Source: an uncultured virus (IMG/VR IMGVR_UViG_3300006128_000010) | Taxonomy: Duplodnaviria > Heunggongvirae > Uroviricota > Caudoviricetes | Reading direction: 5' to 3' (one strand) | DNA length: 64,000 nt | IMG/VR virus record: IMGVR_UViG_3300006128_000010 | In this document: piece after piece, positions 5,419 through 50,130 of the stretch | Position numbering within the stretch: position 1 is the stretch's first letter | Layout of the letters: every line of letters begins with the position of its first letter | Translations under genes and position numbers: made by a program | Notes under the pieces: model-generated | Database searches by the model: none | What the model was told of the DNA's origin: nothing | The model's input: the letters and a program-made list of their open reading frames with translations, nothing else

Positions 5419-6789
5419 TTAACGATCTATCTTTGGCAGTTTCTTTAGTGCTTGCAACTCACTCTTATAAATTGCTCGTTGTCTGGTGGGATCACCCAGT
5501 ATGTCTTGGTAGTCTGCAATAGTAGCTGTCAACTCTGCAATGCGCTTGGCTATTTCATCATATGCATCCCGGGCCCAGCGATAGCTGGGTAGACTTGCAA
5601 TACGTTCTATTTGATCATCATCAAGTGGTATCTTAGCCTTGTTACATATGGTTTTAATTTGTTCAACTACTTCTGCTTTATTCTGGGCCGTGGGTAGAAA
5701 CTTGGGCAAGTTCTTGTCAATACACTCTTTAAGTGCCAAGTTGAAACACAGTGTATAGGTAGCATCTGCAACTAACTTTTCATAACGAGTTACATACCAA
5801 CCCAATCGCCAAGCCACAAACTCTGTTAACAGTATTTCTGCATCTTCATACTGCTTGATACTATCACCGTCCCAGTCAAGAACAACCAATCGTTCAGTTG
5901 TTTTACTCTTGAGTTTGAAGAATTCGATTGCTTTATCTTCTGTCCAACCGTTAATAGTGCCACGCTTGAACCGTACTTCAATCTTGATCTCTTTTGTACT
6001 GCGATCAATGTAAGTTTGTATTTGATCATCGTCTTCCATTTTGTTAAGACGTGCTTTGAATTTTTCTAGTGTTAGATCAGGTGGCAATTCTTCAACCCAA
6101 ACTGTGCTGCCGTCTAGTCTGACTTTACCAGTAAACTCCCAGGCATTGCCGCCCAGGTTACGAGTCTTACAATCAAGGTAATCATATGTTGGAATCAGTC
6201 GATCAAACTTCTTACCGTCTAATACCTTAATACATGATTCAATTAGATCTTCTAACTTGCGTGGTAGTATTTCTGTACTCCAACCCACAGCAATACCACT
6301 AATACCATTTAATAGCACCAGAGGTACAAGCGGTAAGAAGTTCTTGGGTTCTAATACTGAACCATCATAGTTTTCTTTTAGTGGAATAATATCGTAGTCA
6401 GGATATATTAGTGCCTCTGTTATGCCGTTCTTTTTGAGATAGGTATAACGAGGAGCACCCCAATCAGTAGGTCCAACCTTGGTACCAAATGCACCAATGC
6501 CTTGCAAGAACGGGACATTATTACAGTACGTAGCAGCCATTAAACTTAAAGTATCAGCAGCACTTGCGTCACCATGGAGGTAACAACCGCTTGATATCAT
6601 TGATCCTGCTAAAGAAATAGTTTTAATTTTTTCACTAATTGGTTTAATAACAAATAAAGCTTTACGTTGTGCATCTTTAAGACCATCACTGATACTAGGA
6701 ATGCCGCGGTTTTGGCATACATATATGGAATATTCCCGACTAGTAGTTTTAATATAATCTGTAGTATCCTGGTACATTGTTATTGTCAT
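5419..6789 (-). CDS. type II topoisomerase breakage-reunion subunit (gp52/GyrA-like)
   Basis: DGLK..QRK, YLHGD, APRY catalytic Tyr, LLNG.SGIAVG. Confidence 0.95.
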   Translation of the reverse strand: MTITMYQDTTDYIKTTSREYSIYVCQNRGIPSISDGLKDAQRKALFVIKPISEKIKTISLAGSMISSGCYLHGDASAADTLSLMAATYCNNVPFLQGIGAFGTKVGPTDWGAPRYTYLKKNGITEALIYPDYDIIPLKENYDGSVLEPKNFLPLVPLVLLNGISGIAVGWSTEILPRKLEDLIESCIKVLDGKKFDRLIPTYDYLDCKTRNLGGNAWEFTGKVRLDGSTVWVEELPPDLTLEKFKARLNKMEDDDQIQTYIDRSTKEIKIEVRFKRGTINGWTEDKAIEFFKLKSKTTERLVVLDWDGDSIKQYEDAEILLTEFVAWRLGWYVTRYEKLVADATYTLCFNLALKECIDKNLPKFLPTAQNKAEVVEQIKTICNKAKIPLDDDQIERIASLPSYRWARDAYDEIAKRIAELTATIADYQDILGDPTRQRAIYKSELQALKKLPKIDR

Positions 6790-7670
6790 GTTGCTGATGC
6801 CTTTTTACAATTATCTCCGTGCCATCTTGTATAATTTCCTAAATTTGTTTCTATTCCGCAGTGTGGGCATACCTTACGAGCATTTCGAGCCCGCAATCCA
6901 GGACCACATTTTTCAAGTCGCTGTTCAGGTGTCATAGAGTCCCAATTTGCTTTTACAATTTTAGAGCGTCGTTCATAGTACAGTTCTTTTTCTTTTTCAG
7001 TAAAATCTTTCATTGCCATTCGTTCTTTAAATTTCTCTCTGCCGTGTTGCCAGGATTCTAAATTCGGATATTGTTTAGCCAACTTAGCTATTTTTACCTT
7101 CCATGCAACTTGTTTATCTGTTAAACCATTGTTTCTTTCTTTTTGTTCTGCTATCTCTTGTTCTAGTAATCGTGTTTTACATTCAGGATTATAATTAATA
7201 TGTTTTACTGTATTATTTAGAACATCTGGATGATTTATAGATAATTTTTTAATGCTACCGTCTGGATATCTATAAATTGCCATACCTGATCGTCCAGTTG
7301 ACTTATGTAGTCCTGCTTGATGATTTTGAAACCGAGTTTTGCGAGCCTTTTGTAATATCTCAGGTGTTTTTACAATATAATTGCCTTTATTACCGTTATA
7401 ACCATTGGGCCATAATGTTCCTAAATATTCTATGTAAAATTCCTCCTGAGTTTTAAAATATAAATCATCCTGATTGCCTTCTTCTAACAACTCGACTACA
7501 AAATCTTCAACAGTTGCGCTACCTGATTTTAACTCATTCCATAAATAAACTCCGCCTTTACCGGTCATATGCTCCTGAAATCGTTTAAGATAATCTTTAT
7601 CTCTTGCTATGACTATTCCAATGTAAGACTTGTTATTCTTAATATTTGTAATTTTATAAACTTGTTTCAT
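6786..7670 (-). mobile_element. free-standing GIY-YIG homing endonuclease
   Basis: VYKITN..NNKSYIG, R..EH, E..YI, GYN; C-terminal CPHC...RWHGDNC; lies between the topoisomerase genes. Confidence 0.85.
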
Positions 7671-7729
7671 GATTTTCCTTATCGCTAGTATAATTATAAT
7701 ATATATTTGCACTGCGATAAATTTTATTT

Positions 7730-9616
7730 TTAATTAATTTTATTATCTAAGCTAATCCACTCCTTGCGATTATCAGCCCTTGCTGAATTAAATATCAAAT
7801 CCAGTGCCTCACCTAATTTACCATCATCTGTGATAGGAATCAACTGAGGTACCTTTAAACTGTGTATCCAATCTTCTTCTTCAAGACTACCCAGGCCCTT
7901 GGCTCTGGTCGGCTTTGGACAGTTTTTCCAATCCTTAGGATCATACTCGTGATAGTTGTGAGCATACCAGTAGTGACGTTTCTTGGCCTTCTCCTGAATA
8001 ATAAAAGGAGTTTGAAATGCATAAAAGTAGGGTTCCTGTTTGGGATCAAACAACTCCGGCCAATACAAATAAAAGAAGTTGATCAACAATGCAGTAATGT
8101 TAGCACCGTCTGGATCCTGATCCGCTGCCAAGTATACTTTACCGTAGCGTAGATCTTTGCGTTCAGCTCGTTGGCCTAACACACAACCAATACTGGTCAT
8201 TAGATCCTGTATGATTTGATTTTCTACAATGTCCTTGGGTGCTTCGCCACGTACGTTTAGAATCTTACCACGTAGGGGTAAAGCGCCATGTACTTCTGGA
8301 TCACGTACAGCACTTATCATTCCTTTAGCAGAATCACCTTCTGTAATAATAAGAATACAAGTGGATCTGTCTTTACCATTGGCATCTAGTAATTTTGGTA
8401 CTTTGTTACGCATGAGCTTGCGACCAATCTTGGCCAAGTCTGCGTCATCTCGTTTTTGTGTTCTAGCTGCACACCTTGCGTAGATTTCGTCAATCCACGG
8501 CTTGTGCTTTTTGATAATGTCCTTAAACACTTCCTCATTATCGAAGTATGCTTTGATATAACTGTCAACATTCTCATTAATGAGTCTGGATTTAGATTGT
8601 GAGTCAAAGTCTGGAGAAAACATAGTCGTCACGTTATAAATTAACAACCCCTCGCTGATGTCAGACCGATTAGGAGTTAATCCTCGACGTTTGCTTTCAC
8701 GTTCTAGTGCTCGAATAAGCCCGCTATAGAACATTCTCTTGAATGTATCAATATGAGTACCGCCATTGAACGCAGGAATATCATTTACAGTGGTATGTAT
8801 ATACTCGCCGTCTTTGGCAAAGTTACTCACAAGATAGAACGCACTATTAAAGTTCTTATCATCGACGCTTAGTTTAATAACTTCTTTGTCATTAAAGAAT
8901 GTGCGTTCAATTGAGTGCTTGACCATAATACGTTCGCCATTGAACGTAAATTTAACCCTGGGATGGTTAGCGGCTATTTCATGTATACGTGCTTGCATAA
9001 ATGCCAAAGGTAACTTGGCATTTTTAAACACAGTCTTGCTTAATTTAAATTTAACTTGTGTTCCGCTATGACCACCGTTCTTGGTAATCTTTGGTTCATT
9101 GATTATTAATTCTGGAAATAGGTCGGATCCTTCTTTGAACTCTTGTATAAACTTCTTGCCGTCACGATGTATTTCTAAATGAAACCATTCAGAGCAGTTT
9201 ACAACCGTGCTTGCACCAATGCCGTTGGTACCACGTACTTCTTGACGATCACCAAAGTTACGACCAGCTCGGGCTTGTGTTAGTGCCAGTGTAGCTTTGT
9301 GTATACGTTCATTCTCATCCCAGTCAATTGGAATACCGCGACCATCATCAGTAACTGAGAACACCATTTCTTTTGGTTCAAAGGTTATGTCAATCTTGGA
9401 ACCTTTCTTGTGACCGATTACCTCGTCCAGTGCATTATCTAGTAGCTCTCTAAATGCACAATAAACAGCAGGTGTCCAGGTTAGATCCATTGGCAGTAAT
9501 TTGGTTCCATTCCAATGTACTATGTTTTGTGTATGAGCAGTTCTACTGCCCAGGTACATTTCTGTACGTTTGCGATGATGTTGGTAATCTGTGAGTTTGA
9601 TAATTTCTTCTGACAT
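7730..9616 (-). CDS. type II topoisomerase ATPase/TOPRIM subunit (gp39+60/GyrB-like)
   Basis: ELLDNALDE, DDGRGIP, GTNGIG, EGDSA, PLRGKILN, DQDPDG, KGLGS. Confidence 0.95.
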   Translation of the reverse strand: MSEEIIKLTDYQHHRKRTEMYLGSRTAHTQNIVHWNGTKLLPMDLTWTPAVYCAFRELLDNALDEVIGHKKGSKIDITFEPKEMVFSVTDDGRGIPIDWDENERIHKATLALTQARAGRNFGDRQEVRGTNGIGASTVVNCSEWFHLEIHRDGKKFIQEFKEGSDLFPELIINEPKITKNGGHSGTQVKFKLSKTVFKNAKLPLAFMQARIHEIAANHPRVKFTFNGERIMVKHSIERTFFNDKEVIKLSVDDKNFNSAFYLVSNFAKDGEYIHTTVNDIPAFNGGTHIDTFKRMFYSGLIRALERESKRRGLTPNRSDISEGLLIYNVTTMFSPDFDSQSKSRLINENVDSYIKAYFDNEEVFKDIIKKHKPWIDEIYARCAARTQKRDDADLAKIGRKLMRNKVPKLLDANGKDRSTCILIITEGDSAKGMISAVRDPEVHGALPLRGKILNVRGEAPKDIVENQIIQDLMTSIGCVLGQRAERKDLRYGKVYLAADQDPDGANITALLINFFYLYWPELFDPKQEPYFYAFQTPFIIQEKAKKRHYWYAHNYHEYDPKDWKNCPKPTRAKGLGSLEEEDWIHSLKVPQLIPITDDGKLGEALDLIFNSARADNRKEWISLDNKIN

Positions 9617-11185: not shown

Positions 11186-12202
11186 TCAACTTGGACCTGT
11201 TGGTCCTGTTGGTCTTGTAACAGCGGGTTTTTCAACTGGACGGAAATCTGTATTGTCATCTACATCAGCACCACAGTCGTGTACATCGTCGATTTCTGTT
11301 GATTGTTGTAGGTTTTTGGCTATTACCATGCTGAGATAAGTCCAACAAATGGTAGCAGCAGCTAAACTGGTTATTTCAGCATGATCGTACGGAGGTGAAA
11401 CCTCTACTAGATCCATACCTATCCAATTTAATCCAGCCAAATATTCCAAGCATTCTAACACCCACATGCTGGATAGTCCACCAATTTCTGGTGTTCCGGT
11501 ACCGGGTGCATATGCAGGATCTAGTGCATCAATATCGAATGTAAGATAAACCGGAGTATGGTCAATAATTTTAATTGTGTTTGAAATCACGGCCATTAAG
11601 TTAGTCTGTGCATATCTAGCAGTAAATGTAGTACCACCATGGTGATCTAGAAAGTTTCTGGACTTACTATCGGAAGGACTTCGTATTCCGATGCTAATAA
11701 TCTTTGTGGGATCAACCAGTTCTTCTGTGATAGCATTATACAACCAAGTTCCGTGGCCAACAGGTTCATCAAAATTTGTACGCCATGTATCACAGTGTGC
11801 ATCAAAATGTACAACAGCTATCTTACCATATCGCTTGTTCATAGCACGTAGTATTCCAATGGTAACTGTGTGATCACCGCCCAGAAATACTGTATGCTTG
11901 TTCCAATTTAATACATTATTTGTAACTGTTTCAACTTGTTCTAACATTTTCAATGTATTACCGACAGTTATGTCAGCATCGCCGAGATCCACTGTATGAT
12001 CTCGAATGTTGACATTGAAATAAGGGTGATACCCATCCGTTAGCATCATGCTTGATTCTCGTATAGCAGCAGGTGCAAATCTTGCACCCGGTCTATATGA
12101 TGTAGCAGTATCGCTAGGTAATCCTATAACTGCAAAACGTTTTGTTGTATCGTCGGATGTTTTACAAAATGTACGTAAACCTTGAAATGGTTTAGATATC
12201 AT
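11186..12202 (-). CDS. speB: agmatinase (ureohydrolase)
   Basis: RPGARFAP, GGDH, HFDAHCD, HGT, FDIDALDPAYAPGTGTPE. Confidence 0.88.
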   Translation of the reverse strand: MISKPFQGLRTFCKTSDDTTKRFAVIGLPSDTATSYRPGARFAPAAIRESSMMLTDGYHPYFNVNIRDHTVDLGDADITVGNTLKMLEQVETVTNNVLNWNKHTVFLGGDHTVTIGILRAMNKRYGKIAVVHFDAHCDTWRTNFDEPVGHGTWLYNAITEELVDPTKIISIGIRSPSDSKSRNFLDHHGGTTFTARYAQTNLMAVISNTIKIIDHTPVYLTFDIDALDPAYAPGTGTPEIGGLSSMWVLECLEYLAGLNWIGMDLVEVSPPYDHAEITSLAAATICWTYLSMVIAKNLQQSTEIDDVHDCGADVDDNTDFRPVEKPAVTRPTGPTGPS

Positions 12203-17329: not shown

Positions 17330-18418
17330 TTATAGCTTACAAGCTTCGCAGTCTGAATCATCGTCACTGTAGTCTATCGGTGCCAGTTCTTTAATTAGAT
17401 CAAGGTCATCAACTTTTGACCCAGATTTATCCATTAGGCTATAATACAAGGTCTTCAATCCCCATTTATGTGCCTGCATTAAATTTTTAGCTATCAATGT
17501 GGTTGGGACTTTGCGATCTGGAAAATGTTTAGGCGAATAAAACGTATTCACTGAAATAGCCTGATCAACATATGCAGCTAACACCGCAGCAGTTTTCAAA
17601 TATCCGATACAGTCTGTTTGATCCCACATCAACTGATACTTGTTCTTGAGTCTGTGATATTCCGGAACCACTTGCGTAAGTGATGCAGCCTTGCTTTCTT
17701 TAGTAGCAATCAAACTCATTGGCATTTCTATACCATTTGTTGAATTAATACAAACTGAACTTGATTCAACAGGAGCAACTGCTAGCAGCGTAGCATTACG
17801 TACTCCGTGTTGTTTTATTTCATTTCTTAATGATTCCCAGTCAAGTTCTGGTGTAAAGTCTGTAAGCTCATTAACACCATTTGCTCTTAACTCCCAAGGA
17901 AACGTGCCTTGGCCATAGCGTGTCTTAGCACTATCTAAACAAGGACCGCGTTCCTTTGCCAGCTCTACTGTTGCTTCAGTTAAATAAAATGCCTGATGCT
18001 CTATAAATGTCTTTACTTCTGCTAAGCATTCTGGATCACCATACTTCAATCCTCTCTTGGCTAAGAAGTATGCTAGATTAGTGACACCTATGCCAATCGG
18101 ACGTATCTCGTCATTTGATAATTTAGATTGGATACTCAAGAAGTCCTGATAATCTAAAATGTTATTCAAGCTTCTAAGCAGAATTCTACAAGCACGTCTC
18201 ATGTCTTCTGGATTGCGGAATGCACCCCAGTTAATTGATCCAAGTGTACATAGGGAAATACGACCTTCTGCATCATCTAAACGCTTGAACGGCTTGTTAG
18301 GTAGTGTGATCTCACAATTATGAATCAATATATCGTTAGCAAAAAAACATTCTGTTTCTGGAACAGAAATGTCGTATACGTCAGTTTGTTTAACTTTGAT
18401 TTTTTTAATTTTGATCAT
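17330..18418 (-). CDS. nrdA: NrdA C-terminal fragment fused to C-terminal split intein (34 aa)
   Basis: VYDISV...FFANDILIHN|CEITLP; CTLGSIN, KTLYY, C-terminal CEAC. Confidence 0.95.
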   Translation of the reverse strand: MIKIKKIKVKQTDVYDISVPETECFFANDILIHNCEITLPNKPFKRLDDAEGRISLCTLGSINWGAFRNPEDMRRACRILLRSLNNILDYQDFLSIQSKLSNDEIRPIGIGVTNLAYFLAKRGLKYGDPECLAEVKTFIEHQAFYLTEATVELAKERGPCLDSAKTRYGQGTFPWELRANGVNELTDFTPELDWESLRNEIKQHGVRNATLLAVAPVESSSVCINSTNGIEMPMSLIATKESKAASLTQVVPEYHRLKNKYQLMWDQTDCIGYLKTAAVLAAYVDQAISVNTFYSPKHFPDRKVPTTLIAKNLMQAHKWGLKTLYYSLMDKSGSKVDDLDLIKELAPIDYSDDDSDCEACKL

Positions 18419-19356
18419 ATTTTTAATTTTCCTAATTTAAAATCTGGATTATGTTTACAAAATTCTGCTTCGTTTGTGACTTTTATATTTTTCACTCCAT
18501 TATTGTACCAACGATGTTTTGAAGAATGCGCAGATGCTAATTTTCTTTGTGCATTGCTTCTATGATATGAATCATATTTAATTTGAGTACCTTTTACTGA
18601 GTTAACTTCATTTAATAAATCATTCACAGAATCATAATTATTCCAAATCCAAGCTAATGATATTTTTTTAAACTCTGAAAATTCTTTTTTTATTGCAGAA
18701 GTAAGTAGTGACAATTTTAAATACCTGTCTTGACAAGAATTAACTACACAATTTAATAATCTTTCTCGTCTTTCAAGGGTTAGCTCTTTATAATTAGTGT
18801 TATTTGAACCTACTTGTGACTTTCTATTTGCTGTTTTTGCTGGAAGACCTTTACAATGGTGAATCCATTCGCCGGATAATACTTTCGGATGATCTATTGG
18901 CACAGAACCTATTTTTTTCCGAGTTAGTGCATCCACAACCGGCATTTTTCCAGTTTTTGCTTTACTAATACTCTCGATTCCCAACATACGCAAGTGTTCC
19001 ATCTCTTTCAAAAAATTACTATCAATCTCTGATAAATTTTTCTGTCTTTTATGATTCCCTGTGGCTTTTACAAAAAAGAATTGCAATGCTGAGCCAGCTG
19101 AATATGCATATCTTGAATCTTTATATATTTCATACAAATAATAATGTGCTATTAAATGTTCAGAAAATGTTAGAAAAACCAAGTTATCAGAACTGTTTGG
19201 GTTCCCATCTAAATGTCCCTTAGGTCCGGGTCGCCTCCGGTTTTTAAATAGAAAATCTGGAATAATATGATGTACTTCATAATATATTCCTTGATTCTTC
19301 ATTCTATTCTCTTTTCTAGCATTATCAATAATATTTTTATACAACTTTTTATACAT
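18415..19356 (-). mobile_element. free-standing HNH homing endonuclease inside fractured nrdA
   Basis: YEVHHIIP...NLVFL...EH..AH; WYNNG module; AT-rich. Confidence 0.88.
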
Positions 19357-19388
19357 ATGAATTTCTCCATATGTATTTATGTTAGCAA

Positions 19389-21050
19389 TCAGTTTTCAAT
19401 ACATAACTCGTCCGTTTCTACAAGTTCATCCGCTCTAACATAACCTCTATTTTTGGTATAAATTAAATGATCAGCAGTGCATTGGATAATCTTACCACTT
19501 TCATCTGTGATCTCATAAAGTTCTGTTACTGTTTTAGTTTTCATTGCACCTGAAATATCAGCCCATATTACTTTGTCATTCTTAAAACTTTTAATCTTTG
19601 ATTCAGTAAGGCCGCCTAATTCAAATCTTTCTACTGCACTAGCAACCGACATTGTTTCAATTTTCCCGCTTTTATGTAAAAAGGTTACGCGAGTATCGCC
19701 TGTAATACAACAGAGATTTGATTGGTAAATTGGATGTACCTTGGGATCAAACGGTCCTTGATTCTGAACATTATCAGTATACATCAAATAAATTCGACCA
19801 GTATCAGTACGTTCTTTTAAAATACCGCCCTTAAATACTTCTTCTGCACTCATAGTCTTAGTGCGTATATCTTTACGTTTTTCATACTTAACATAAAGGT
19901 TTTCAAATAGTTCCGTATCTCCATAAAATGCTTCAAATAAATCTGGTACTTCGTTCGGATCAAAGAATGTGATATTTTCTTTGTTCTTAAAGCGACGCCA
20001 AAAGAATGCGTTCAATACTACTGCATAATCCATATGACGTACACGAGTTTCTTCAGTACCTTGATTATTTTTTAATACAATCAAATCATCAAATTGATAG
20101 TGCCATATTGGGAAGTAAACAGTACAGCTGGAATTCCTAATACCACCTTGTGAACAGCTACGTAGATCACCAAACCACTTCTTTAGGAACGGAATCATAC
20201 CTGTATGTGTAATCTCCCCGCCTCTAATTGGACTACCAAGGGGACGTAGTCTACCAATTTCTAACCCGATACCAGCTCGTTTACTTGCATACTTGGCCAT
20301 CATTTCGCCAGCAGCAAAAATACTGTCTAGATTATCGTCAGCACGTATGAGAACACAACTACTGAACTGTTTAGTTGGTGTTCCTAATCCTGCTAGCACA
20401 GGTGTAGCTAGAGTAAACAATCCGTCTGAGGCAGCATTATAGTATTCTTTAATATATTTCATTCTAGCTTGACTAGGTTCTTCTCTATGAAACACTGTTG
20501 CGGCTGCTACAATATACCTAATCTGCGGTGTTTCGTATATCTGTTTAGTGGCACGATTACGTATCAAGTATTTTTCAATTAATTGTTCAATTGCTGCATA
20601 GCTGTACGCTTCATCTTTGGTATGATCAAGGATATCGTTCATTCGATTCCAATCATCAACTGTGTACCAATCTAATAAATCTCGGGTATATAATCCTAAT
20701 TCCACATTATGTTTAACAATTTCATATATGTGAGGCGGATTATACTGACCGTAGACATCCTTACGCAACATACCAAGTCGTTGATTGCCGGCTACAAATT
20801 GATAATTGGTATGTCCGATATCTGGATTAGATTCTATATCGATTAGATCAACTATAGCACGTAGGGTTATTTCATCTATTTCTCTGGTGCTGATACCATC
20901 ATAAAAATGTGGTTGTGCTTTGATTTCTATCATTGATTGACTAACGTCAGCTATGCCCGTGCAGACCTTGGTGATCTGATTTTGCCATTTAGTAACATCT
21001 AACGGCACTTTTGCTCCGCTACGTTTTACAACTCGAATCGATGACATCAT
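19389..21050 (-). CDS. nrdA: NrdA N-terminal fragment fused to N-terminal split intein (106 aa)
   Basis: ATP cone VVKRSG, QFSSC, QGGIR, QSNLC|CITGDT...CTADH...RGYVRADEL. Confidence 0.95.
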   Translation of the reverse strand: MMSSIRVVKRSGAKVPLDVTKWQNQITKVCTGIADVSQSMIEIKAQPHFYDGISTREIDEITLRAIVDLIDIESNPDIGHTNYQFVAGNQRLGMLRKDVYGQYNPPHIYEIVKHNVELGLYTRDLLDWYTVDDWNRMNDILDHTKDEAYSYAAIEQLIEKYLIRNRATKQIYETPQIRYIVAAATVFHREEPSQARMKYIKEYYNAASDGLFTLATPVLAGLGTPTKQFSSCVLIRADDNLDSIFAAGEMMAKYASKRAGIGLEIGRLRPLGSPIRGGEITHTGMIPFLKKWFGDLRSCSQGGIRNSSCTVYFPIWHYQFDDLIVLKNNQGTEETRVRHMDYAVVLNAFFWRRFKNKENITFFDPNEVPDLFEAFYGDTELFENLYVKYEKRKDIRTKTMSAEEVFKGGILKERTDTGRIYLMYTDNVQNQGPFDPKVHPIYQSNLCCITGDTRVTFLHKSGKIETMSVASAVERFELGGLTESKIKSFKNDKVIWADISGAMKTKTVTELYEITDESGKIIQCTADHLIYTKNRGYVRADELVETDELCIEN

Positions 21051-37634: not shown

Positions 37635-38033
37635 ATGTCTGAGTCGTTTTTAGCTGAACATTTTAGAAACTTACTTGATAAATTAAACATATTAACAGAA
37701 ACTGATACTAATGAAAATAATGATGAAACTCCAGAAGTTCACGATGTAGATGGTCTATTGAAAACAGATATCCCGTCAGGCATTAACAAGGAATCTGTTA
37801 AAGAAGTTAATGACCTAGTTGACTATCTAGATCAGTTCCCAGAATTAAAAAAATGGAGAAATGAAAATGCGTTATACGATGATGCTTGTTATGAAAATAT
37901 TCCATTAGATAGCTTAGAAAATATATCTGGATTAACTTTAGAAGATTTGAAAAGAATAGAAGACGGTACCCTACCGTATGAAGGAGCAATAGTTATACAT
38001 AACGGAGTTTTCAGTCTTTTTGGCGGGGACTAA
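37635..38033 (+). CDS. acidic hypothetical, putative internal head protein
   Basis: ATAAATA and AAGGA SD; FRNLLDKLNILTE start. Confidence 0.6.
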   Translation: MSESFLAEHFRNLLDKLNILTETDTNENNDETPEVHDVDGLLKTDIPSGINKESVKEVNDLVDYLDQFPELKKWRNENALYDDACYENIPLDSLENISGLTLEDLKRIEDGTLPYEGAIVIHNGVFSLFGGD

Positions 38034-39454
38034 CGTCTAATCAAAGACGTCAATGTGGTTAAGTCTTTAATGGTTTTTGTTGCTTGAACACTCGATGGAG
38101 CGGAATCAGTTTCTGCTCCTTCCTTTTTAGCTGCACTTGCATTCTTTCTACGTAAATCAGCAAATACATCACTAGCATTACCTGTTTCCATAAGAGTAGC
38201 ACCACCGTCCTCAAGATCAAATATCTTCAATGTATTTGGATCAAATCCCAAATATACCTTGCTACCGACGCCGCTACTACTACGTGTTTTAAGAAACTGC
38301 ACTTGATACTGACCGCGTTCTTTCATAGCTGCACTGGCAAAAATACTGATCACGTTGTCAGCAGTCTGTATCTTACTGATACCACCTGCAATCATGCTAT
38401 GATCATGCTCTTGCTCTTGCGTTGCACTGCGATTTAACTGACTTGCTGTAACACAAAGCATATTTGTTTCTACTGCCAAACCTCTAAGTTCTTCTGTAAC
38501 GAATTTATCCTTAATAAACAAGTCACTAGGATTTACTTTTTTGTTATTAGGGTAAAGCAAGTCTAGGTAATCTACCACAATAACATCTGGTCTTTTTTGA
38601 CGTTCGATCTCATAATTCTTCAAGTATACTTTAATGTCATTAGTTGTACTACCCTGTGGTATCTGTCTGATATACAAATCACCACTTTTGAATCCTGCTT
38701 GCTTGACTTTGATTTCAACTGTGTCAAGGTTACGGAATATGTCTCTGGTACCAACTTCAGTAAGCATACTATCAATACGCATACCAGTTAAACCTTCACT
38801 AAGTTCTAGTGATATGTAAACAACATTAAGTCCCTGTTTACTCAGATTAAGTGCCATGTTCTGCAAGAACAAGCTCTTACCCACACCAGATCCCGCACAC
38901 CAGATGGTAATCTCACCTCTGTTAACACCGCCATACAATTTCTCATCAACAGTCTTCCACCCTGTGCTAATCTGACCGTTTTTATCTTTAATTTTAAGTA
39001 GTCTTTCCCGAGGATCTGCATAATAATTTGTACCAAGATCATTTTGTAAACTAATCAGTATTGCTTCTCTAACACGTTTTTCTACTTCGCCGTAATTACC
39101 CTTTTCAATAAGTGCAACTGCACTTGTTACCGCATCTGCAAGTGCTCTATTCTTACAAAACTCTTCGATTTCTTTCAAGAAACTATCTTGATGTTGGACA
39201 AGAATATTATCAATCTTTGTAAATTCCCCACCTGTTTCTGCATTTACTTGTTCAAACTTTGGTAATACTTTGAACTCATTAGCATATTTGAGTATAAACC
39301 TCATAGAAGGTCTATACTTGTTTACAAAATACTTAGAGTCTAAGATGTTTTGACATCTTGCAAACACTTCCTCACTACTTAACAGCACATCTATTAGTAG
39401 TTTCTGTTTGTCCTCACCGTATTCTTTAATTTCATCTTCTTGTTCTTTAGCCAT
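38030..39454 (-). CDS. replicative DnaB-like helicase (gp41-like)
   Basis: STGW..VD, AGSGVGKS, ISLELSE, VVDYLDL, TASQLNR. Confidence 0.93.
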   Translation of the reverse strand: MAKEQEDEIKEYGEDKQKLLIDVLLSSEEVFARCQNILDSKYFVNKYRPSMRFILKYANEFKVLPKFEQVNAETGGEFTKIDNILVQHQDSFLKEIEEFCKNRALADAVTSAVALIEKGNYGEVEKRVREAILISLQNDLGTNYYADPRERLLKIKDKNGQISTGWKTVDEKLYGGVNRGEITIWCAGSGVGKSLFLQNMALNLSKQGLNVVYISLELSEGLTGMRIDSMLTEVGTRDIFRNLDTVEIKVKQAGFKSGDLYIRQIPQGSTTNDIKVYLKNYEIERQKRPDVIVVDYLDLLYPNNKKVNPSDLFIKDKFVTEELRGLAVETNMLCVTASQLNRSATQEQEHDHSMIAGGISKIQTADNVISIFASAAMKERGQYQVQFLKTRSSSGVGSKVYLGFDPNTLKIFDLEDGGATLMETGNASDVFADLRRKNASAAKKEGAETDSAPSSVQATKTIKDLTTLTSLIRR

Positions 39455-39456
39455 CG

Positions 39457-40479
39457 TTATCCCTTGAACATCTGTCTTTTAACATTTATTTGTAGGGGAC
39501 TTGCAGTCTTATTTGCAAGTATGCTACGAAGTGTATAAATCTTACCATATCTTGCACTAGCTTGTGCAGAGTCTTTGATTGAGTCCTCCCATTCTGGAAA
39601 ACTTACAGCCCAGTTATTATCTAATGCTGCATCAATTAATCCCTGATTCTTACGCTGTCGATCTGGTACTACAACTATTTCTTTATCACATTGCAATAAC
39701 CAAGCTAACTGGTCTTTGGATAACTCACTACCCAACACAGCAACTCCGTCAACAGCTATAGCATCAAACGGTCCTTCAACTAATAATACATATTTACGAT
39801 TGGGGTTGTCTAATGCCTCATTGTTAAACAAATACCCCGGTTGTAATTCGCTATTATAATATCTAGGCGTACCGTGCGGAGGAGTACCAGCATATCTGGC
39901 AGTCCATCCAACAATTTGATTGTCATAATAAAACGGTATAATTACTCTGTGATTCATATCATGCTTGGTACTAGAAGTCCAATGATAATCATAATTATTT
40001 GCTACAGCTGATCCTCTTGATAACAAATAAGAAACAACTTCAAAATAATCATTGGGAATGTCTTCCCATTCGGTTATGCTTTCAATTGTGGCTGCACCCG
40101 GTGGTAGGTTAACTTCTTTGAATTTCCTGTTGAAAATTAGTAGTTCATTAACGCCCTGTCTTTCTACACCATCGATTTTATTTTTTAATAGTTCTAATTT
40201 GGCTTGCTGGATGTCCTCGTGCGGTACCCCTAGCCAATTCAATAACAATTCAAAGTTCTTACTGAGTTCGATGTTGTCAAATCTCGTTTTGAATCCGCAA
40301 TTATAACAATTATATCCTATGACGCCATCTGCAGATACCATAAGATTGCCTCTGTGACGTTTATCTACACTGTGTCCGCGGTGATGACAGCATACAGCAT
40401 TGAATAAAATCCATCCTCGGGGACTTTGACGTCGCTTTGCAGGGATATTGTTTAATACTAATTCATGTACTTGAGCCAT
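39457..40479 (-). CDS. DNA primase (gp61-like)
   Basis: N-terminal Zn ribbon CC..CYNC, RVIIP, GWTAR, VEGPFDA TOPRIM. Confidence 0.88.
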   Translation of the reverse strand: MAQVHELVLNNIPAKRRQSPRGWILFNAVCCHHRGHSVDKRHRGNLMVSADGVIGYNCYNCGFKTRFDNIELSKNFELLLNWLGVPHEDIQQAKLELLKNKIDGVERQGVNELLIFNRKFKEVNLPPGAATIESITEWEDIPNDYFEVVSYLLSRGSAVANNYDYHWTSSTKHDMNHRVIIPFYYDNQIVGWTARYAGTPPHGTPRYYNSELQPGYLFNNEALDNPNRKYVLLVEGPFDAIAVDGVAVLGSELSKDQLAWLLQCDKEIVVVPDRQRKNQGLIDAALDNNWAVSFPEWEDSIKDSAQASARYGKIYTLRSILANKTASPLQINVKRQMFKG

Positions 40480-41428: not shown

Positions 41429-41803
41429 ATGAACAATACACACAAAATTTTACAAGAACGTTTTCCATTTTTAACAATAGTCAAATACTTAAAGTCACAA
41501 TACATAGGCATAGTTCAAAATGCTGATCATTTGTTTATCAGCATGTATGTGCTAGATGAGAGTTTTACCACTGAGATGAAACGAGAATTTCTAGAATGTG
41601 GCGAGGTATACTGGTGGGAAAGCAACAGGTCAATCCCAATTAATTTGTTTTTACAGGATGATTTCAAAAAATTCAAACCTTACCTCAGAGTCTTTAGCAA
41701 AAAAGAAGCCGAGGTATTGCAGGGTCCTGTGATCAATTTAAGAGAATTGATGAACAAGAGAATCAAACGTCGTACAATTACTCTTGTTCGATCAGTAGAC
41801 TAA
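41429..41803 (+). CDS. conserved hypothetical phage protein
   Basis: TATAAATA upstream; WWESNR.IPINLFL. Confidence 0.75.
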   Translation: MNNTHKILQERFPFLTIVKYLKSQYIGIVQNADHLFISMYVLDESFTTEMKREFLECGEVYWWESNRSIPINLFLQDDFKKFKPYLRVFSKKEAEVLQGPVINLRELMNKRIKRRTITLVRSVD

Positions 41804-42288
41804 AGTCCAGTCTCGTCCTCATCGCCTTCAAGTATGGTTTGAGTAACTTTGACTCGAATAGTTCCATCTTTGTTGATCTTAACCTTCTGCGGCTTGCGCT
41901 TTTCTTCTGCACGAGCTTCTGCTTGTTTGGCCTCGTCCCACTTTTGGAACAGTTCAACTTGTGCCCATGCAAACATAGCAGCATCACTTTTGTCCTCGAC
42001 TATAGCATAGGCAGTGATCTTTTCTGATTTGGTATCACGCTCTGCCCAGATATTAATTGACCCAGCGATTTGTTCAAGTGTTCCAAAAACTGTACCAAGT
42101 CTATTTGGATCAACATTTGGGCTACGAAACATGTAGCCACTTTTGAGCTTGGAATTTAACCTCTTAATAGGATCAAATTCTAAATTTGCAGCAACCTGCT
42201 CGTTTACTGACTTATCTCTAGTACCTAACCAAACATTAGTGCCAAGAATATTTGTTTCTCGAGTCCAATAAAGTTTACGTTTAGCCAT
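41800..42288 (-). CDS. hypothetical protein
   Basis: GGAGG SD and TTGACT-N16-TATAAT promoter. Confidence 0.75.
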   Translation of the reverse strand: MAKRKLYWTRETNILGTNVWLGTRDKSVNEQVAANLEFDPIKRLNSKLKSGYMFRSPNVDPNRLGTVFGTLEQIAGSINIWAERDTKSEKITAYAIVEDKSDAAMFAWAQVELFQKWDEAKQAEARAEEKRKPQKVKINKDGTIRVKVTQTILEGDEDETGL

Positions 42289-42323: not shown

Positions 42324-42926
42324 TTACTGTTCAGTCAATGGATTTTGTTCTATGAGCAAATTAGCATGTACATATACCAATACCGCATAGGATATACCGT
42401 GTGCATGTTTAAAAACATAGCCGTTTTCGTCGTGTTTCCAAATTTCGTCAGAAATACTATCAAATCCCTGTTGAATACATTTAGACTGTAAATGCCGTTT
42501 ACCCGGACGAATTAATGCTAATATCATAGCCAAGTCTTTGATAGATTTTGGTTTAAGTTTGGCTACTAGTTCTCCGTAATTGTTGATATGGAATAATTTA
42601 CCAACAAAGTCGGGCTTTTCAAACACAGTCCAATCAATTGTTCGACTCATTAAATCTAATAAATGTGATTCATCTCTAACCATGGTATAAACACCGACAT
42701 TGAGTACATCTATCTTAAAGCAACCCATATCTTCTGCACGATCGTATCCAATACTGCATAGCTCTGTTACAGGGTCTATTGGTACTGCATGAAAATATAC
42801 TCCGGTGTTATGTTTGGTTATCTTACCATCACGGATAATACTAGCAGGAACATGAGTAAGACTTGATAGAGCTAACTCTCTGTTTGCTACGTCTATATCA
42901 ACGTCCCCTCTATCCATTAAACCCAA
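42324..42926 (-). CDS. minimal DnaE (Pol III alpha)-like polymerase core
   Basis: DVDID, KHNTGVY, FKIDVL, ALIRPG, GYVFKHAHGISYA in DnaE order within 200 aa. Confidence 0.8.
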   Translation of the reverse strand: MGLMDRGDVDIDVANRELALSSLTHVPASIIRDGKITKHNTGVYFHAVPIDPVTELCSIGYDRAEDMGCFKIDVLNVGVYTMVRDESHLLDLMSRTIDWTVFEKPDFVGKLFHINNYGELVAKLKPKSIKDLAMILALIRPGKRHLQSKCIQQGFDSISDEIWKHDENGYVFKHAHGISYAVLVYVHANLLIEQNPLTEQ

Positions 42927-43218
42927 ACCTCGAGTTAATCTGATTTATTGCGTTATTAATTTTACTATCACTTCTTCTAGATTCTTGTTTCAAAGTTCTA
43001 ATTTCATTTTCCAGTGAATTACATTTTAATTCTAGTTCATTAATTTTTCGATTTATAAATTCTATGTATTCTGGACTTATTACGTTAAATGTTTGGTCGC
43101 CTAATCTTATCTCCGCAACAAACGAACCTTTTTTAACAGAAAAAGGAGTTGAGATTGTTTGTAATGGTTTTTCATAATCATCTGTATCATATTGACTAAT
43201 AGCATCATCGTCTATCAT
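42910..43218 (-). CDS. coiled-coil hypothetical protein
   Basis: heptad-like C-terminal half. Confidence 0.65.
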   Translation of the reverse strand: MIDDDAISQYDTDDYEKPLQTISTPFSVKKGSFVAEIRLGDQTFNVISPEYIEFINRKINELELKCNSLENEIRTLKQESRRSDSKINNAINQINSRFGFNG

Positions 43219-43219
43219 A

Positions 43220-43906
43220 TTAAACTCCTGCTTCTTTCATGGTCTTCTTGATCCAATCAATAGACTCTCTATTTTTCATAAACTTAATCTTCCACTGTGG
43301 CACTGGTGCAAACTTTTTGATCATATCCTGTTGCTCCATACTACATCTGTCTATCAAATCCAATGCACTGTCCACATTGTACAACAACCACGGACTTATT
43401 CGACCACTTTGTGTCCATTGTACTGCTAAATTTGTGTTGATTTTTCTGAAAAAGTCCTGCCAAGGTTCGCCTGTTTGCATACTCCATTGTTGCATGAGCA
43501 ATATCATACGTTCTAGTGCTTGCTCGGGAGTCTCCTTCTTGGTTATCTCTCTAATGTATTGCTCATACACAAAATCATACGTCCATTTGTCAATTGGCAA
43601 ATTATTTTTGATTACAAAATCTATAAACTTTGCTGGTTCAATTGCATTGATATCGATGATATGTCTACCAAATTTAATAAAAGCTATATAATATCTACTG
43701 TTAATAAATTCTTTATAGTTGTTTTTCTTTTTGGTACCGCTAGATTGTGTTAGTTCGTAGAATCTAGACCATGCTAAAAATCCAAATCTGCTGGATGGAT
43801 CGTCTTTTCTGAACCATCTACGTTTCTTTTCACAAGTATGGTTAATGAGATTACGCTCATCATGAAACTGTCTGCTGCAAAACTCACATGCATGTTTATT
43901 AGCCAT
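43220..43906 (-). CDS. Zn-finger protein, possible gp59-like helicase loader
   Basis: CEFC...H.C; QSGRISPWLLYNVDSALDLIDR resembles the T4 gp59 C-terminal segment as recalled. Confidence 0.4.
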   Translation of the reverse strand: MANKHACEFCSRQFHDERNLINHTCEKKRRWFRKDDPSSRFGFLAWSRFYELTQSSGTKKKNNYKEFINSRYYIAFIKFGRHIIDINAIEPAKFIDFVIKNNLPIDKWTYDFVYEQYIREITKKETPEQALERMILLMQQWSMQTGEPWQDFFRKINTNLAVQWTQSGRISPWLLYNVDSALDLIDRCSMEQQDMIKKFAPVPQWKIKFMKNRESIDWIKKTMKEAGV

Positions 43907-44405
43907 TCTTTGCGTATTTCTTCCAATGATCCATTAATTCTTTTGTTTCTCGTTCACTTTTACCAGCATCTATAGTTAGCTGTTTAAAGCTTTCACTAGT
44001 GTGATTTTCTTTAAGAATAGCTAATTCTATATCATTTGAACTTGGATATAATTCTCTGAAAAATTCATCAAGAGCTGCTGAAACAGATTTCTTTCCTTTA
44101 TTAGGTATCCATTGATGATACTGTTTGCTACCTAAACTTGCTGCACATAGCAGTAGATGCTGTAGATCTGGATATTTACTTAACTGCCAAAATCCAATAT
44201 TAACCAAATCATTTGTTGCAATGATAGCGTATTCTTTATTTCTACTTTGGTCACCGAGACTACTCATGTACCTCATCAGTACCAACGGTGCATATGCTTT
44301 CTTCTCATCCAGTGTTAAATTAGTATAAAATGATTTATTACCTCGATCAAGTTCAGCTAATACTGTACTTAATTCAAGTTTATATTTCTTTTTTTCACTA
44401 GCCAT
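43899..44405 (-). CDS. possible clamp-loader small subunit (gp62-like)
   Basis: YAPLVLMRYMS...Q..LL...QWI pattern, size and replication context. Confidence 0.45.
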   Translation of the reverse strand: MASEKKKYKLELSTVLAELDRGNKSFYTNLTLDEKKAYAPLVLMRYMSSLGDQSRNKEYAIIATNDLVNIGFWQLSKYPDLQHLLLCAASLGSKQYHQWIPNKGKKSVSAALDEFFRELYPSSNDIELAILKENHTSESFKQLTIDAGKSERETKELMDHWKKYAKNG

Positions 44406-46846: not shown

Positions 46847-48763
46847 TCATGACTTTTTCCAGATATATTTTTGATGCCCGCAATCCCATATAACATCAAA
46901 ACCGTTTGACAACATGAATTGTTTTTCAGTTAAACCGTTTGTTTCTCCCAGTTTATGTTTTTGAAATTGCAATCTATCATATCTGCAATTGGGTTTATTT
47001 AATTCAACATATTGATATCCTATTGTTGGTTTTCCAAAAGAAGCAAATCCCATTTTTAAATAACTTTTTCCTGTACCGTAACTAAGATCACAATAACTTA
47101 TTACAGAATTGGGATTTTTATTTTTAACAAAATAAGAGAATAGTTTTGATGCACCACCTACTACAACGGTATTACGTATAGCAGCCATTCTAGTTATTTC
47201 AAATTCAAATGATTTATTATATCTAGATTTAGAAAAACTCATGCACATTACCAGTTTATTTTCATAAAATAACCCAATATTATAAGAACTTTTTATATAA
47301 CCGCTGATATGATTATTTTCAAAAAATTCCTCTGCTTGATAATTGTCTATGACACTAACAATAGTTTTTCTTGCAGGGATTTTTGCAGATTTTCCCAATC
47401 TAACGTTTATCATACTTTTTATCAGCAACTTATTATCGTACCAATCATCTGAGAAAATTGTTATTAATTGAATATTTTTATTGTTACATTCGTACCATTT
47501 ATTATAATGATAAAATTTATTTTTATTGCCAAATCCTTCTGTGTGATATCTTAATCCGCAATACTCTATTGCTAGATTTTTGTCCTTTATTACGATATCT
47601 AATTCTTTATTTTTTCTTTTATCGTTTTTATTTGCTAGTACAGTTCTGTCATTTATTAATAAAGGATCAACTCCTACTATACCTTTGATGTAATCTACTA
47701 TTTCTTGTTGACCAGAACTAATATGTGCTGGATAGCATGTAGGACATCTAGGAATTCTGCCGTTTATTGCAGTACCATCAAAGTGACTATTACACGTATC
47801 GCATATCCATTTAAAATGGTTTGAAGTAAAATTAAATGGCTCTTGGTCGTTGGGCCTTATTTTATGAATTTCTAATCTAGAACATAATTTACTATAATAG
47901 GTATCAAGCTGTGCTGTTCTTATTTGTTGTTTGATTATTTCACTTTTGCTCGGATTGTCGACACCGTATTTCTCTAAACTTGTTGATTTGATTTTATCCT
48001 TGATCGAATCAAGATGCATAGGATGATCGACGCCATATCTTTCTATGTTTGTTGATTTGATTTTATCCTTGATCGAATCAAGATGCATAGGATGATCGAC
48101 ACCATATCTTTCTATGTTTGTTGATTTGATTTTATCCTTGGTTGAATCGAGATGCATAGGATGATCGACACCATATCTTTCTATGTTTGTTGATTTGATT
48201 TTATCCTTGGTTGAATCGAGATGCATAGGATGATCGACTCCCAATTTTGCTATATACGACTCTTTTACCTTATCTTGGTCTTTAAATGGATTATCAATAC
48301 CATATCGTTCGATGTTTGTTTGTTTTCTTTTTTCATTTATAGAACTTTTTGTATCATTAGAATAGGAAAGTTTAGATCGCGAAACATTATCGGATACAGA
48401 TTGTTCTGTACATTTGCACCTGCTAGCAGGACCGCATCGTCTATATCCTACAGCATATCCTATAAATTTTATATGTTTATTAAAGGGACATTCGGGTTTA
48501 TACCCATTGACATATACATAAAGTTTTTCGATATCTTTACTTGTAACTAATTTATTACAATCAATTTTTGAGGTTATTTCTTCCCAATAATTTGATTCTT
48601 TTAATTGTTTTATTACCAAATTAGCTACTTTAACATTGTTTTTGTATTTTTCAAAAAGATCGTCAATATGCTTCAGTATGTTATTTTTTTCATTGTGAAC
48701 GGATATTGCACTTCTGTGTAAAATTTCCGTCGTTTCAATTGGTGTCTGTTGCTGAATTTGCAT
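46847..48763 (-). mobile_element. putative homing endonuclease (PD-(D/E)XK/Vsr-like) with repeats and Zn ribbons
   Basis: ELDI...LAIEY.G...H, LITIF..DW, CDTC..CPTC, YCDLSYGTG..Y...GF; start codon uncertain. Confidence 0.75.
47981..48240. repeat. 69-bp coding tandem repeat (~3.8 copies)
   Basis: units start at 47981, 48050, 48119, 48188; encode GVDHPMHLDS(T/I)KDKIKSTNIERY. Confidence 0.95.
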
Positions 48764-50130
48764 TTGCTACTCACATCGTAAATATCTACTGCTTCTTTGT
48801 CATCTGCTTTACGTAAACCACGACCAATACTTTGAATTACTCTAACAAAGCTCTTACCCGGTTCTAATAAAACTAAATTAAAGAGTCTACTAATATTTAT
48901 GCCTGTTGAAGTGGTTCCATAAGTTGCAATCATAATCGCATTATTATCAAAGTTAATTTCTTTATAATGTTCTCTACGCTCAGTAGCTTTCATTTTACCG
49001 CTAATGAATATAGCATCTGGTAATAATTCGTTTAAAATTTGTCCAGTTTCAATTCTATCAATCAGGACTAGAGTATTACCTGTTTTAGCGATTTCCTTGA
49101 CCTTAGTAGCTAGCCACTCGAGTCGTTCTTTATTGGTAACAAGGTACTTTAGTTCTTCTTGATAGTTATTATATACCAATGTTTCTTGAGTTTGAAGAAT
49201 ATTAACATGGCACTGTGCTAAATGTCCTGCGTCTTGTAATTCTTTAGCAGTAAGTTTACCAATTATAGGTCCAATGGCACTGTACAAACTAACTTGGTTG
49301 TATTCTTCTTCTGGAATAGTACCAGTTAATCCCCAGCGAATTGGCACATTAGCAAATGTAGTTGTTAATAGCGTATGTAGTACACCTGTATTCTTAACCA
49401 TATGCACTTCATCACATATAACAGCAACAAGGTTGTCAAGAAATACTTTTAGCTGATCATCATCAAGTGCATCTTTGTTTTTCTTATCTAATACATTCAA
49501 ACTCTGCCAGGTGCATATGGTATGAGTGCGATTATACTCTTTACGATCACCGTACAATACACCAACGTCTAATCCGATATTACGGTAGTCTTCTTCTGTT
49601 TGTTGTACTAGATTCTTATTGGGAACAATAACAATAGTTCTTCCATATTTTTCAGCAAGTTTGCTCAGGCAAGAAGTTACGATTGTCTTTCCTGCACTAG
49701 TAGGAGCAATCGTTATCCCTTGTAAATTATTAACGCATTCATTTATAGCAGCTACTTGATAGTCGCGTATAATAATAGGTTCTCCTGCCATACGATGACC
49801 TTCTGGCCATGTGATATCAGCTAGGTATTGATCGTCGATCTGATCAAGGTTAAACTCATATCGTTGTCTACGATCTTCAATTTCAAATTCAAAGTTGTTA
49901 TCTTCTAGGATAGGCAGGATCTTGTCCAAGAGATTTAAGTAAGTCCTGCCTCCAAGTGTACAAAAACTCTGAGTTCCATCCCATCTGCCTAATTTGAATG
50001 CCGGGCTATAACGTGCATGAGGCAAGAAGTACTTGACTGAATTGGCACACGCTTTTCGTGTAGATAGATCTAGATTTTCTAATTTTATGTTGCACTCGTC
50101 TTCAATAATTATGTTGCATGATTTTATCAT
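48673..50130 (-). CDS. uvsW: SF2 helicase UvsW
   Basis: WDG, RDYQ, APTSAGKT, DEVH, GLTGT, STGINI, QSIGRGLR. Confidence 0.92.
   Translation of the reverse strand: MIKSCNIIIEDECNIKLENLDLSTRKACANSVKYFLPHARYSPAFKLGRWDGTQSFCTLGGRTYLNLLDKILPILEDNNFEFEIEDRRQRYEFNLDQIDDQYLADITWPEGHRMAGEPIIIRDYQVAAINECVNNLQGITIAPTSAGKTIVTSCLSKLAEKYGRTIVIVPNKNLVQQTEEDYRNIGLDVGVLYGDRKEYNRTHTICTWQSLNVLDKKNKDALDDDQLKVFLDNLVAVICDEVHMVKNTGVLHTLLTTTFANVPIRWGLTGTIPEEEYNQVSLYSAIGPIIGKLTAKELQDAGHLAQCHVNILQTQETLVYNNYQEELKYLVTNKERLEWLATKVKEIAKTGNTLVLIDRIETGQILNELLPDAIFISGKMKATERREHYKEINFDNNAIMIATYGTTSTGINISRLFNLVLLEPGKSFVRVIQSIGRGLRKADDKEAVDIYDVSSKCKFSNRHQLKRRKFYTEVQYPFTMKKITY

Follow-up and report, generated by a model that had tools for sequence, protein, structure and literature searches.

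The closest described system is that of Iyer et al. 2021 (Viruses 13:63, PMC7824862), whose accessible text describes group 2.2 jumbo phages with a minimal Pol III alpha divided between two proteins. The N-terminal NTP-binding unit and the C-terminal Mg2+/template-binding unit are encoded on distant genes, beside a family B polymerase; examples of the C-unit are 121Q gp16 (YP_009101610.1) and Atu_ph07 gp074 (YP_009611739.1), both in PHROG 11778. In the available part of a 2026 preprint on E. coli Pol III ternary complexes (10.64898/2026.06.29.735100), H511 and K553 contact the primer and R639-G641 contact the templating base, Y754/F756 form the roof of the pocket and H760 excludes rNTPs; H760 is also named the steric gate in the accessible portion of PMC8485763. 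According to the same part of the E. coli study, R362-G363-S364 contact the dNTP, R362A abolishes activity, and R390A alone carries a 27-fold cost. In E. coli Pol III, closing of the index finger drives nucleotide selection. In B. subtilis, DnaE extends RNA primers and then hands off to PolC (PMC3664799, text available in part).

We analyzed a window of 64,000 nucleotides taken from a 65,173-base linear virus record that is estimated to be 15% complete. The ORF at 42324-42926 on the minus strand encodes, with high confidence, the C-terminal half of a miniature DnaE core that is split over two genes in a T4-like (group 2.2) jumbo phage. As the split minimal Pol III alpha was described from sequence in 2021, this is a new example and not a discovery; the gene is one more member of that family, labelled ‘DNA polymerase’ or ‘DnaE-like’ in PHROGs and in several GenBank records. 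The ORF is 38-46% identical to the C-unit genes of 121Q, PBECO4, PA5oct, Atu_ph07, and Phosso, which lie in the same gene order, and its relatives share with the 2021 system the distant N-unit gene (121Q gp56, PHROG 11127) and a family B polymerase alongside. Compared with the C-unit of Iyer et al., the ORF shows no material difference, and the 162-aa insertion downstream is a feature of its close clade. It is a stand-alone Mg2+/template-binding part with no other Pol III domain on the record, an assignment based on the text of the 2021 paper and on the legend of its Figure 3. Relative to those parts of the paper, our survey makes small additions, namely natural fusions of the N- and C-units, a 141-kb non-jumbo carrier, the loss of the index-finger arginines and the change of R390 to Glu. 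The full-text literature searched, which largely excludes subscription papers, yielded no bench study of a split mini-DnaE and no mention of the fusions, although the 2021 supplement may list them; the accessible portions of the PA5oct omics paper and of a 2026 survey of bacterial polymerases contain nothing on the gene.

The ORF is uninterrupted and spans 200 codons from a TTG. An ATG at codon 4 (42917) gives a protein of 197 aa and an 8-base overlap with the stop of the upstream gene, and cluster members 98% identical to the ORF are 195-197 aa long; on both grounds the ATG is the likelier start. One of these cluster members, 197 aa long, is encoded on a contig of 305,602 bases. Residue numbers follow the 200-aa reading. 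The motifs DVDID, HNTGV, KIDVL, ALIRPG, and GYVFKHAHGISYA occur in this order, as the earlier note, which was made from the letters alone, had read them. The D8-V-D10-I-D12 strand (42891..42905, minus strand) corresponds by alignment and conservation to E. coli D401-F-D403-V-D405, with D8 and D10 as metal ligands, and K71-I-D73 (42708..42716, minus strand) corresponds to K553-F-D555, the primer-phosphate lysine and the third catalytic aspartate. The three catalytic aspartates claimed in that note are accordingly D8, D10, and D73, equivalent to D401, D403, and D555; D12, the equivalent of D405, is invariant but is no catalytic aspartate. In the alignment to E. coli DnaE, H39 matches H511 and R140-P141-G142 matches R639-P640-G641. 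The Y170..F172..H176..Y180 helix-loop-helix (42387..42419, minus strand) is the equivalent of Y754/F756/H760/Y764, the roof over the nascent pair and the rNTP steric gate. A promoter scan gave 16 against 13.3 +/- 3.9 expected, which is the level of chance.

Several comparisons place the ORF in the C family. PHROG 11778 (‘DNA polymerase’, 197 positions) matched residues 5-194 with an E value of 1e-56, and the full-length DnaE family PHROG 405 gave a weak match. Homologues were significant at E <= 1e-3 for 740 of 873 candidate proteins of 110-350 aa, and the best 120 of the 740 all measure 189-216 aa. In GenBank, 96 phage records carry a homologue, including those of 121Q, PBECO4, PA5oct, Atu_ph07, and Phosso, and several of these already label it DNA polymerase or DnaE-like. 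A phmmer search with the single ORF against solved-structure sequences returned no match at E <= 1, and a profile of the family found DnaE there weakly (best E 0.0012); Pfam gave nothing above cut-off for the ORF, with PF17657 as the only sub-threshold match. The AF2 model of the ORF alone has a pLDDT of 90.3, and with this model Foldseek placed Pol III alpha or PolC at ranks 1-16 (best E 6e-4). The top seven VIA-align matches were all C-family polymerase chains (Z 10.7-7.0; next match 4.6), and the model spans E. coli DnaE 396-781 (Z 8.5, rmsd 3.7, 194 aligned). The Pol-beta-like palm that bears D401/D403/D555 is thus present, with C-family enzymes as the top structural matches.

Similar to DnaE (E. 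coli; Mycobacterium DnaE1, 5lew; Thermus, 2hpi) and PolC (3f2b), the ORF has the fold (Z 7.0-10.7) and the Asp triad and keeps the equivalents of H511, K553, R639-P640-G641, and Y754/F756/H760. For conservation, 371 representatives at 50% identity were found, and from the best 150 of these, 96 of 175-235 aa were counted and 54 dropped. Among the matches listed, D8 and D10 are each conserved in 95 of the 96 representatives, D73, K71, and P141 in all 96, H39 and R140 in 94 each, and H176 in 93; seven key residues occur all together in 89 of 96. The aspartate conservation proposed as a check in the earlier note therefore holds, and so does its claim that the spacing from DxD to HxxG is compressed to under 30 aa, as D10 and H39 lie 29 residues apart.

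The same distance in E. coli is 108 residues, and that from R140 to H176 is 36 residues compared with 121. From these spacings, the thumb helices and the index finger (R709/R710/K714/K715) are gone, and among the matches listed the RR[AS]M and [YF]QEQ motifs occur in none of the 96 representatives. PHP, OB, and clamp-binding parts are absent from the ORF, as had been noted, and the full thumb and the R709/R710 index finger are missing as well. Unlike DnaE and PolC, the ORF lacks the PHP domain, the N-terminal palm, the thumb helices (about 439-502), the index finger (about 645-735), the distal fingers, the clamp-binding motif, the OB and the tau-binding domain, and the palm is split over two genes. 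The ORF opens at the catalytic strand, only a few residues ahead of the D401 equivalent, and does not contain the R-G-S dNTP-binding motif. A hairpin at residues 26-44 of the model probably represents the pair of thumb strands gripping the minor groove, as judged from order and from H511. R396 has no conserved equivalent in the split units. Among the matches listed, K143 is present in 85 of 96 representatives, position 173 is Lys or Arg in 95, and position 174 is Lys or Arg in 92, with His at this last position in the window’s own ORF; K143/K173/K174 may compensate for the lost R390 and index-finger arginines. Given the loss of basic dNTP contacts and the 27-fold cost of R390A in E. coli, catalysis may be weak or different.

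Since the ORF covers just part of DnaE, it might be read as a decaying fragment of a full-length dnaE, a reading that we consider refuted. No other DnaE-like pieces were found in six frames of the whole record, so the adjacent frameshifted remnants that the earlier note had named as a sign of decay are absent. Across 80 viral loci the ORF is 185-219 aa long in 78, and the remaining two are cut by contig ends; this agrees with the constant length of about 200 aa that had been anticipated. Three measurable pairs of relatives gave dN/dS values of 0.056, 0.083, and 0.084. In comparisons with the window’s gene, synonymous sites are saturated or nearly so (pS 0.70-0.96), while pN is 0.23-0.32 in all ten. 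Judged by these substitution patterns, the C-unit gene is under purifying selection, and the gene order is the same from 121Q to Atu_ph07. The constant length, the conserved aspartates and the low dN/dS (0.06-0.08) support the earlier view of a streamlined C-family protein and not a broken one.

The part of the palm that is missing from the ORF is found in the N-unit. Stand-alone N-units (PHROG 11127) are about 175 aa long (range 167-202 aa), and all 67 distinct sequences contain GRGS. The two units have complementary ends: the N-unit terminates with E-F-L-K, equivalent to E. coli R390-F-L-N393 (about 389-393), and the C-unit starts at about E. coli 397-400. In place of R390, 65 of the 67 N-units have Glu and the other two have Asp. 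Natural fusions also occur, as P0197 (375 aa) and P0255 (336 aa) contain PHROG 11127 followed by PHROG 11778 and both score above the PF07733 cut-off. P0280 and P0281 are likewise fused (375-376 aa, 78-81% identical to P0197), and three more cluster members have the fused length, P0295 and P0296 (375-376 aa) and P0297 (336 aa), of which P0296 lies on a contig of up to 33 kb. No locus for P0197 was found in the viral contigs. An AF2 model of the fusion from a four-row alignment reached a pLDDT of 48 and was discarded, and P0272 (390 aa), which joins the start of a C-unit to a methyltransferase and comes from a single 1.7-kb contig, was excluded as a likely chimera. A rapid, unrooted tree built from 67 C-units places the P0197-type fusions together with split forms (SH-aLRT 98-99), with P0255 elsewhere on a long branch. 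These separate positions hint at separate re-fusions, and a single origin is also possible.

The two halves occur together in related phages. A fused query matched 188 places in the 96 GenBank phage records, equal to both halves in 92 records if none holds three, and among the matches listed at least four records gave a single place. One of the latter is Alishewanella phage Slicko01 (OQ508956.1, 141 kb, non-jumbo), in which a profile search located the N-unit 11 kb upstream of the C-unit (E 6e-19); the halves in this phage are thus about 11 kb apart, with the RFC gene and a gp62-like gene between them. The N-unit is present in four of five long records chosen by the C-unit, and the C-unit in all five chosen by the N-unit. 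The RFC clamp-loader ATPase gene flanks the N-unit in 67 of 80 loci. One viral contig of 117,666 bases (loci L128 and L129) carries two N-unit matches of equal score in opposite orientation, perhaps an assembly duplication.

On the window’s 65-kb, 15%-complete record, the N-unit was not found, and it was found in just one of nine related fragments of 6-42% completeness. Among long relatives, the closest (216 kb, 42% complete, 69% identity) has neither an N-unit nor a PolB. The RFC gene was likewise not found on the window’s record or its fragment relatives in a search run without a positive control, and one fragment (G014) has the N-unit, yet RFC was not found in it. As the usual flanking RFC gene was not found either, we read the missing N-unit as incompleteness of the record and infer a partner N-unit in the window’s phage. 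This bears on the proposal of the earlier note that the 200-aa chain is by itself a complete minimal polymerase, which we judge very unlikely. The proposal draws on the three aspartates on one chain, on the confidence with which AF2 folds that chain alone and on the absence of the partner gene from the record. However, the N-terminal palm with R362-G363-S364 is missing from the chain, and R362A kills the E. coli activity in the available part of the study (10.64898/2026.06.29.735100). The missing part is encoded by a distant, co-occurring gene in relatives and is fused to the C-unit in a few, and the incomplete record lacks the PolB and RFC genes as well.

The gene order around the C-unit in the window is that of 121Q, Atu_ph07, and Phosso. 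A 102-aa coiled-coil gene (42910..43218, minus strand), weakly similar to a PHROG annotated as virion structural protein, precedes the C-unit, and its stop overlaps the ATG by 8 bases. Further upstream are genes for a conserved 228-aa protein whose N-terminus carries a C2H2/C2HC-type zinc finger (43220..43906, minus strand; PHROG 11058) and for a 168-aa protein (43899..44405, minus strand; PHROG 11758). Downstream, a 162-aa gene (41800-42288, minus strand) restricted to the close clade, with 28 of 84 loci, matched nothing in Pfam or PHROG and is followed by a convergent 124-aa conserved gene (41429..41803, plus strand; PHROG 11637). Next are a DnaG-type primase (39457..40479, minus strand; PHROG 47, E 3e-30) and a DnaB-like replicative helicase (38030..39454, minus strand; PF03796, E 2e-20; PHROG 19), which confirms the primase and helicase that had been noted nearby. 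Of 84 loci, many of them truncated by contig ends, 78 contain the 228-aa gene and 77 the convergent 124-aa gene; the 168-aa gene occurs in 73, the primase in 68, and the helicase in 57, and the C-unit is upstream of both of the last two.

Of the putative clamp-loader and helicase-loader genes that the earlier note had placed in the operon, the former survives as a lead and the latter is unsupported. In Atlas, the 168-aa gene scores 0.94 against clusters in which 11-13% of members carry PF16790, and its orthologue in Slicko01 directly follows the RFC gene. Tests of this gene against PF16790 were mixed: one of 30 family members matched at E 0.03, matches to PF16790/gp62 were seen in 0 of 8 genomes, and hhalign to the single T4 gp62 gave a probability of 0.1%. 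A gp62-like clamp-loader small subunit is therefore a lead only for this neighbor. The 228-aa gene matched PF08994/gp59 in 0 of 8 genomes, with 0.06% in hhalign to the single T4 gp59, and had no usable match in Atlas; only its zinc finger matched anything. This finger is eukaryote-like (C2H2/C2HC), with C7, C10, H23, and C25 in 34 of 34 sequences, and the rest of the protein has no known match. The convergent 124-aa gene contains a conserved W-x-x-N-R-x-x-P-I motif; its family has no function on record, and no match was found among solved-structure sequences.

The wider context is that of group 2, with a gp32-type SSB, a UvsW-type helicase, DnaB, a DnaG-type primase, and a T4-like terminase, the SSB match being weak (E 7e-5, below the Pfam cut-off). 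The SSB, RecA, UvsY, and UvsW genes lie upstream of the C-unit in the same orientation. As RecA, UvsY, and UvsW share the operon, the gene order cannot separate replication from repair. In the primase, the TOPRIM residues E235 and D273 are kept in all 55 relatives and D239 in 54; at the second DxD position, 34 of the 55 have Asp and 16 share the Gln of the window’s primase. The possibility that the mini-enzyme substitutes for a dead primase is ruled out by the TOPRIM counts.

The main replicase appears to be another enzyme, as had been suggested. The separate family B polymerase (PF00136) that was to be looked for was not found on the window’s 15%-complete record; in relatives, PolB was found in four of five records chosen by the C-unit and in all five chosen by the N-unit (9 of 10 related records). 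The catalytic and exonuclease-I motifs were intact in four of four PolB sequences examined. In Slicko01, the PolB match is divided between open frames of 578 aa and 322 aa.

The predicted heterodimer is most likely a template-directed, dNTP-selective, distributive accessory polymerase for primer extension or gap filling, and a primer extender or gap filler is our best guess for the mini-DnaE. This role is the least certain part of the model. As the best overall explanation we tentatively propose, at somewhat less than an even chance, that the two-gene mini-DnaE core is a primer extender that acts at the fork before the family B replicase. The C-unit would supply the three catalytic aspartates, the H511/K553 primer contacts, the R639-P640-G641 template contacts and the Y754/F756/H760 pocket, and the distant gene for the ~175-aa N-unit would supply the N-terminal palm with the R-G-S dNTP motif. 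The complementarity of the two chains and the natural fusions suggest that they build one Pol-beta-type active site. With only the beta-hairpin base of the thumb and without PHP, OB, clamp-binding part, or index-finger Arg, synthesis would be templated, dNTP-selective, non-proofreading and distributive. The primase would lay down an RNA primer, the mini-DnaE would add a short DNA stretch, and the clamp loader would hand the 3' end to the family B replicase. The fork role is suggested by gene order and by analogy with B. subtilis DnaE, likewise a second, non-proofreading C-family polymerase between primase and processive replicase. The B. subtilis enzyme, however, is full-length and single-chain with a family C partner, whereas the role of the phage pair is putative and its replicase belongs to family B.

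Evidence counted for a fork primer extender includes the complementary ends, GRGS in 67 of 67 N-units, the fusions, the co-occurrence of the halves, the PolB alongside, and the key residues in 89 of 96 representatives among the matches listed. The C-unit lies upstream of the primase in 68 and of the helicase in 57 of 84 loci, and the N-unit near RFC (67 of 80). Counted against it are the absence of the partner gene from the window’s record, the deletion of R709/R710/K714/K715, the Glu at R390 in 65 of 67 N-units and the unmatched R396; the index-finger loss and the change of R390 to Glu cut against ordinary polymerase kinetics as judged from the alignments. T4, moreover, extends RNA primers with its own family B polymerase and, to our knowledge, needs no enzyme of the mini-DnaE type. 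The same heterodimer could instead serve as an accessory polymerase that fills gaps or bypasses lesions during recombination-dependent replication and repair and not in routine priming, which we consider rather unlikely. The SSB, RecA, UvsY, and UvsW genes upstream in the same orientation would suit such a role, as would an open, finger-less and proofreading-free site suited to low-fidelity distributive synthesis, and repair is one option named in the accessible text of Iyer et al. (PMC7824862). Yet both halves are retained near-universally across the group, which better fits an essential role, and the fidelity residues Y754/F756/H760 are kept.

The losses around the active site could also point away from ordinary DNA synthesis. 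The pair might be a nucleotidyltransferase with a changed output, one that starts primers de novo, tails DNA ends without a template or makes a short oligonucleotide. A missing index finger, a much reduced thumb and the conserved charge reversal from R390 to Glu would be expected if the substrate differed, and Pol-beta-fold enzymes often work without a template. This is unlikely, as the template-base residues R140-P141 (94 and 96 of 96, among the matches listed), the primer contacts H39/K71 and the gate H176 are all kept, and the preserved TOPRIM acidic residues mean that a substitute primase is not needed. That the pair makes no DNA, and binds primer-template DNA or dNTPs or decoys a host Pol III sensor, is more improbable still. 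Several basic dNTP-contacting residues are indeed gone, but the three aspartates and the counterparts of K553, R362, and H760 hardly vary although overall identity is 30-50%, which is the pattern of an active enzyme.

A bolder version, possible but doubtful, is that the halves or the 336-376-aa fusions are the smallest working C-family polymerase, which lacks an index finger and serves as an essential, Pol-alpha-like primer extender in which K143/K173/K174 and the terminal Lys/Arg of the N-unit replace the R390/R709/R710 contacts. On this version, a DnaG-type primase would be bridged to a family B replicase in a hybrid bacterial/T4-type fork, found across a large phage lineage and down to 141-kb genomes. 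If active, the pair would set the lower limit of what the bacterial replicase fold needs for catalysis, and T4-like jumbo phages would have a fork with two polymerases. The fusions P0197, P0280, P0281, and P0255 make the activity directly testable with one small protein.

Other genes of the window were recorded in passing. The ribonucleotide reductase large subunit (17330-21050, minus strand) is divided between ORFs at 19389-21050 and 17330-18418, which are separated by a gene for a homing endonuclease (18415-19356, PHROG 655). The ORF at 19389-21050 ends in an intein-like segment (PF14890, below cut-off) that starts with Cys-Cys, and that at 17330-18418 starts with a 34-residue piece ending in His-Asn before Cys; by these features it is apparently a natural split intein with a free-standing endonuclease. 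Host-like genes encode a PP-loop (TilS-like) ATPase (3928-4890, minus strand) and an arginase/agmatinase-family enzyme (11186-12202, minus strand). A further homing endonuclease gene (6786-7712) lies between the two topoisomerase II subunit genes in the region 5419-9616 (minus strand), and another (46847-48763) overlaps the end of the UvsW-type helicase gene in the region 46847-50130 (minus strand).
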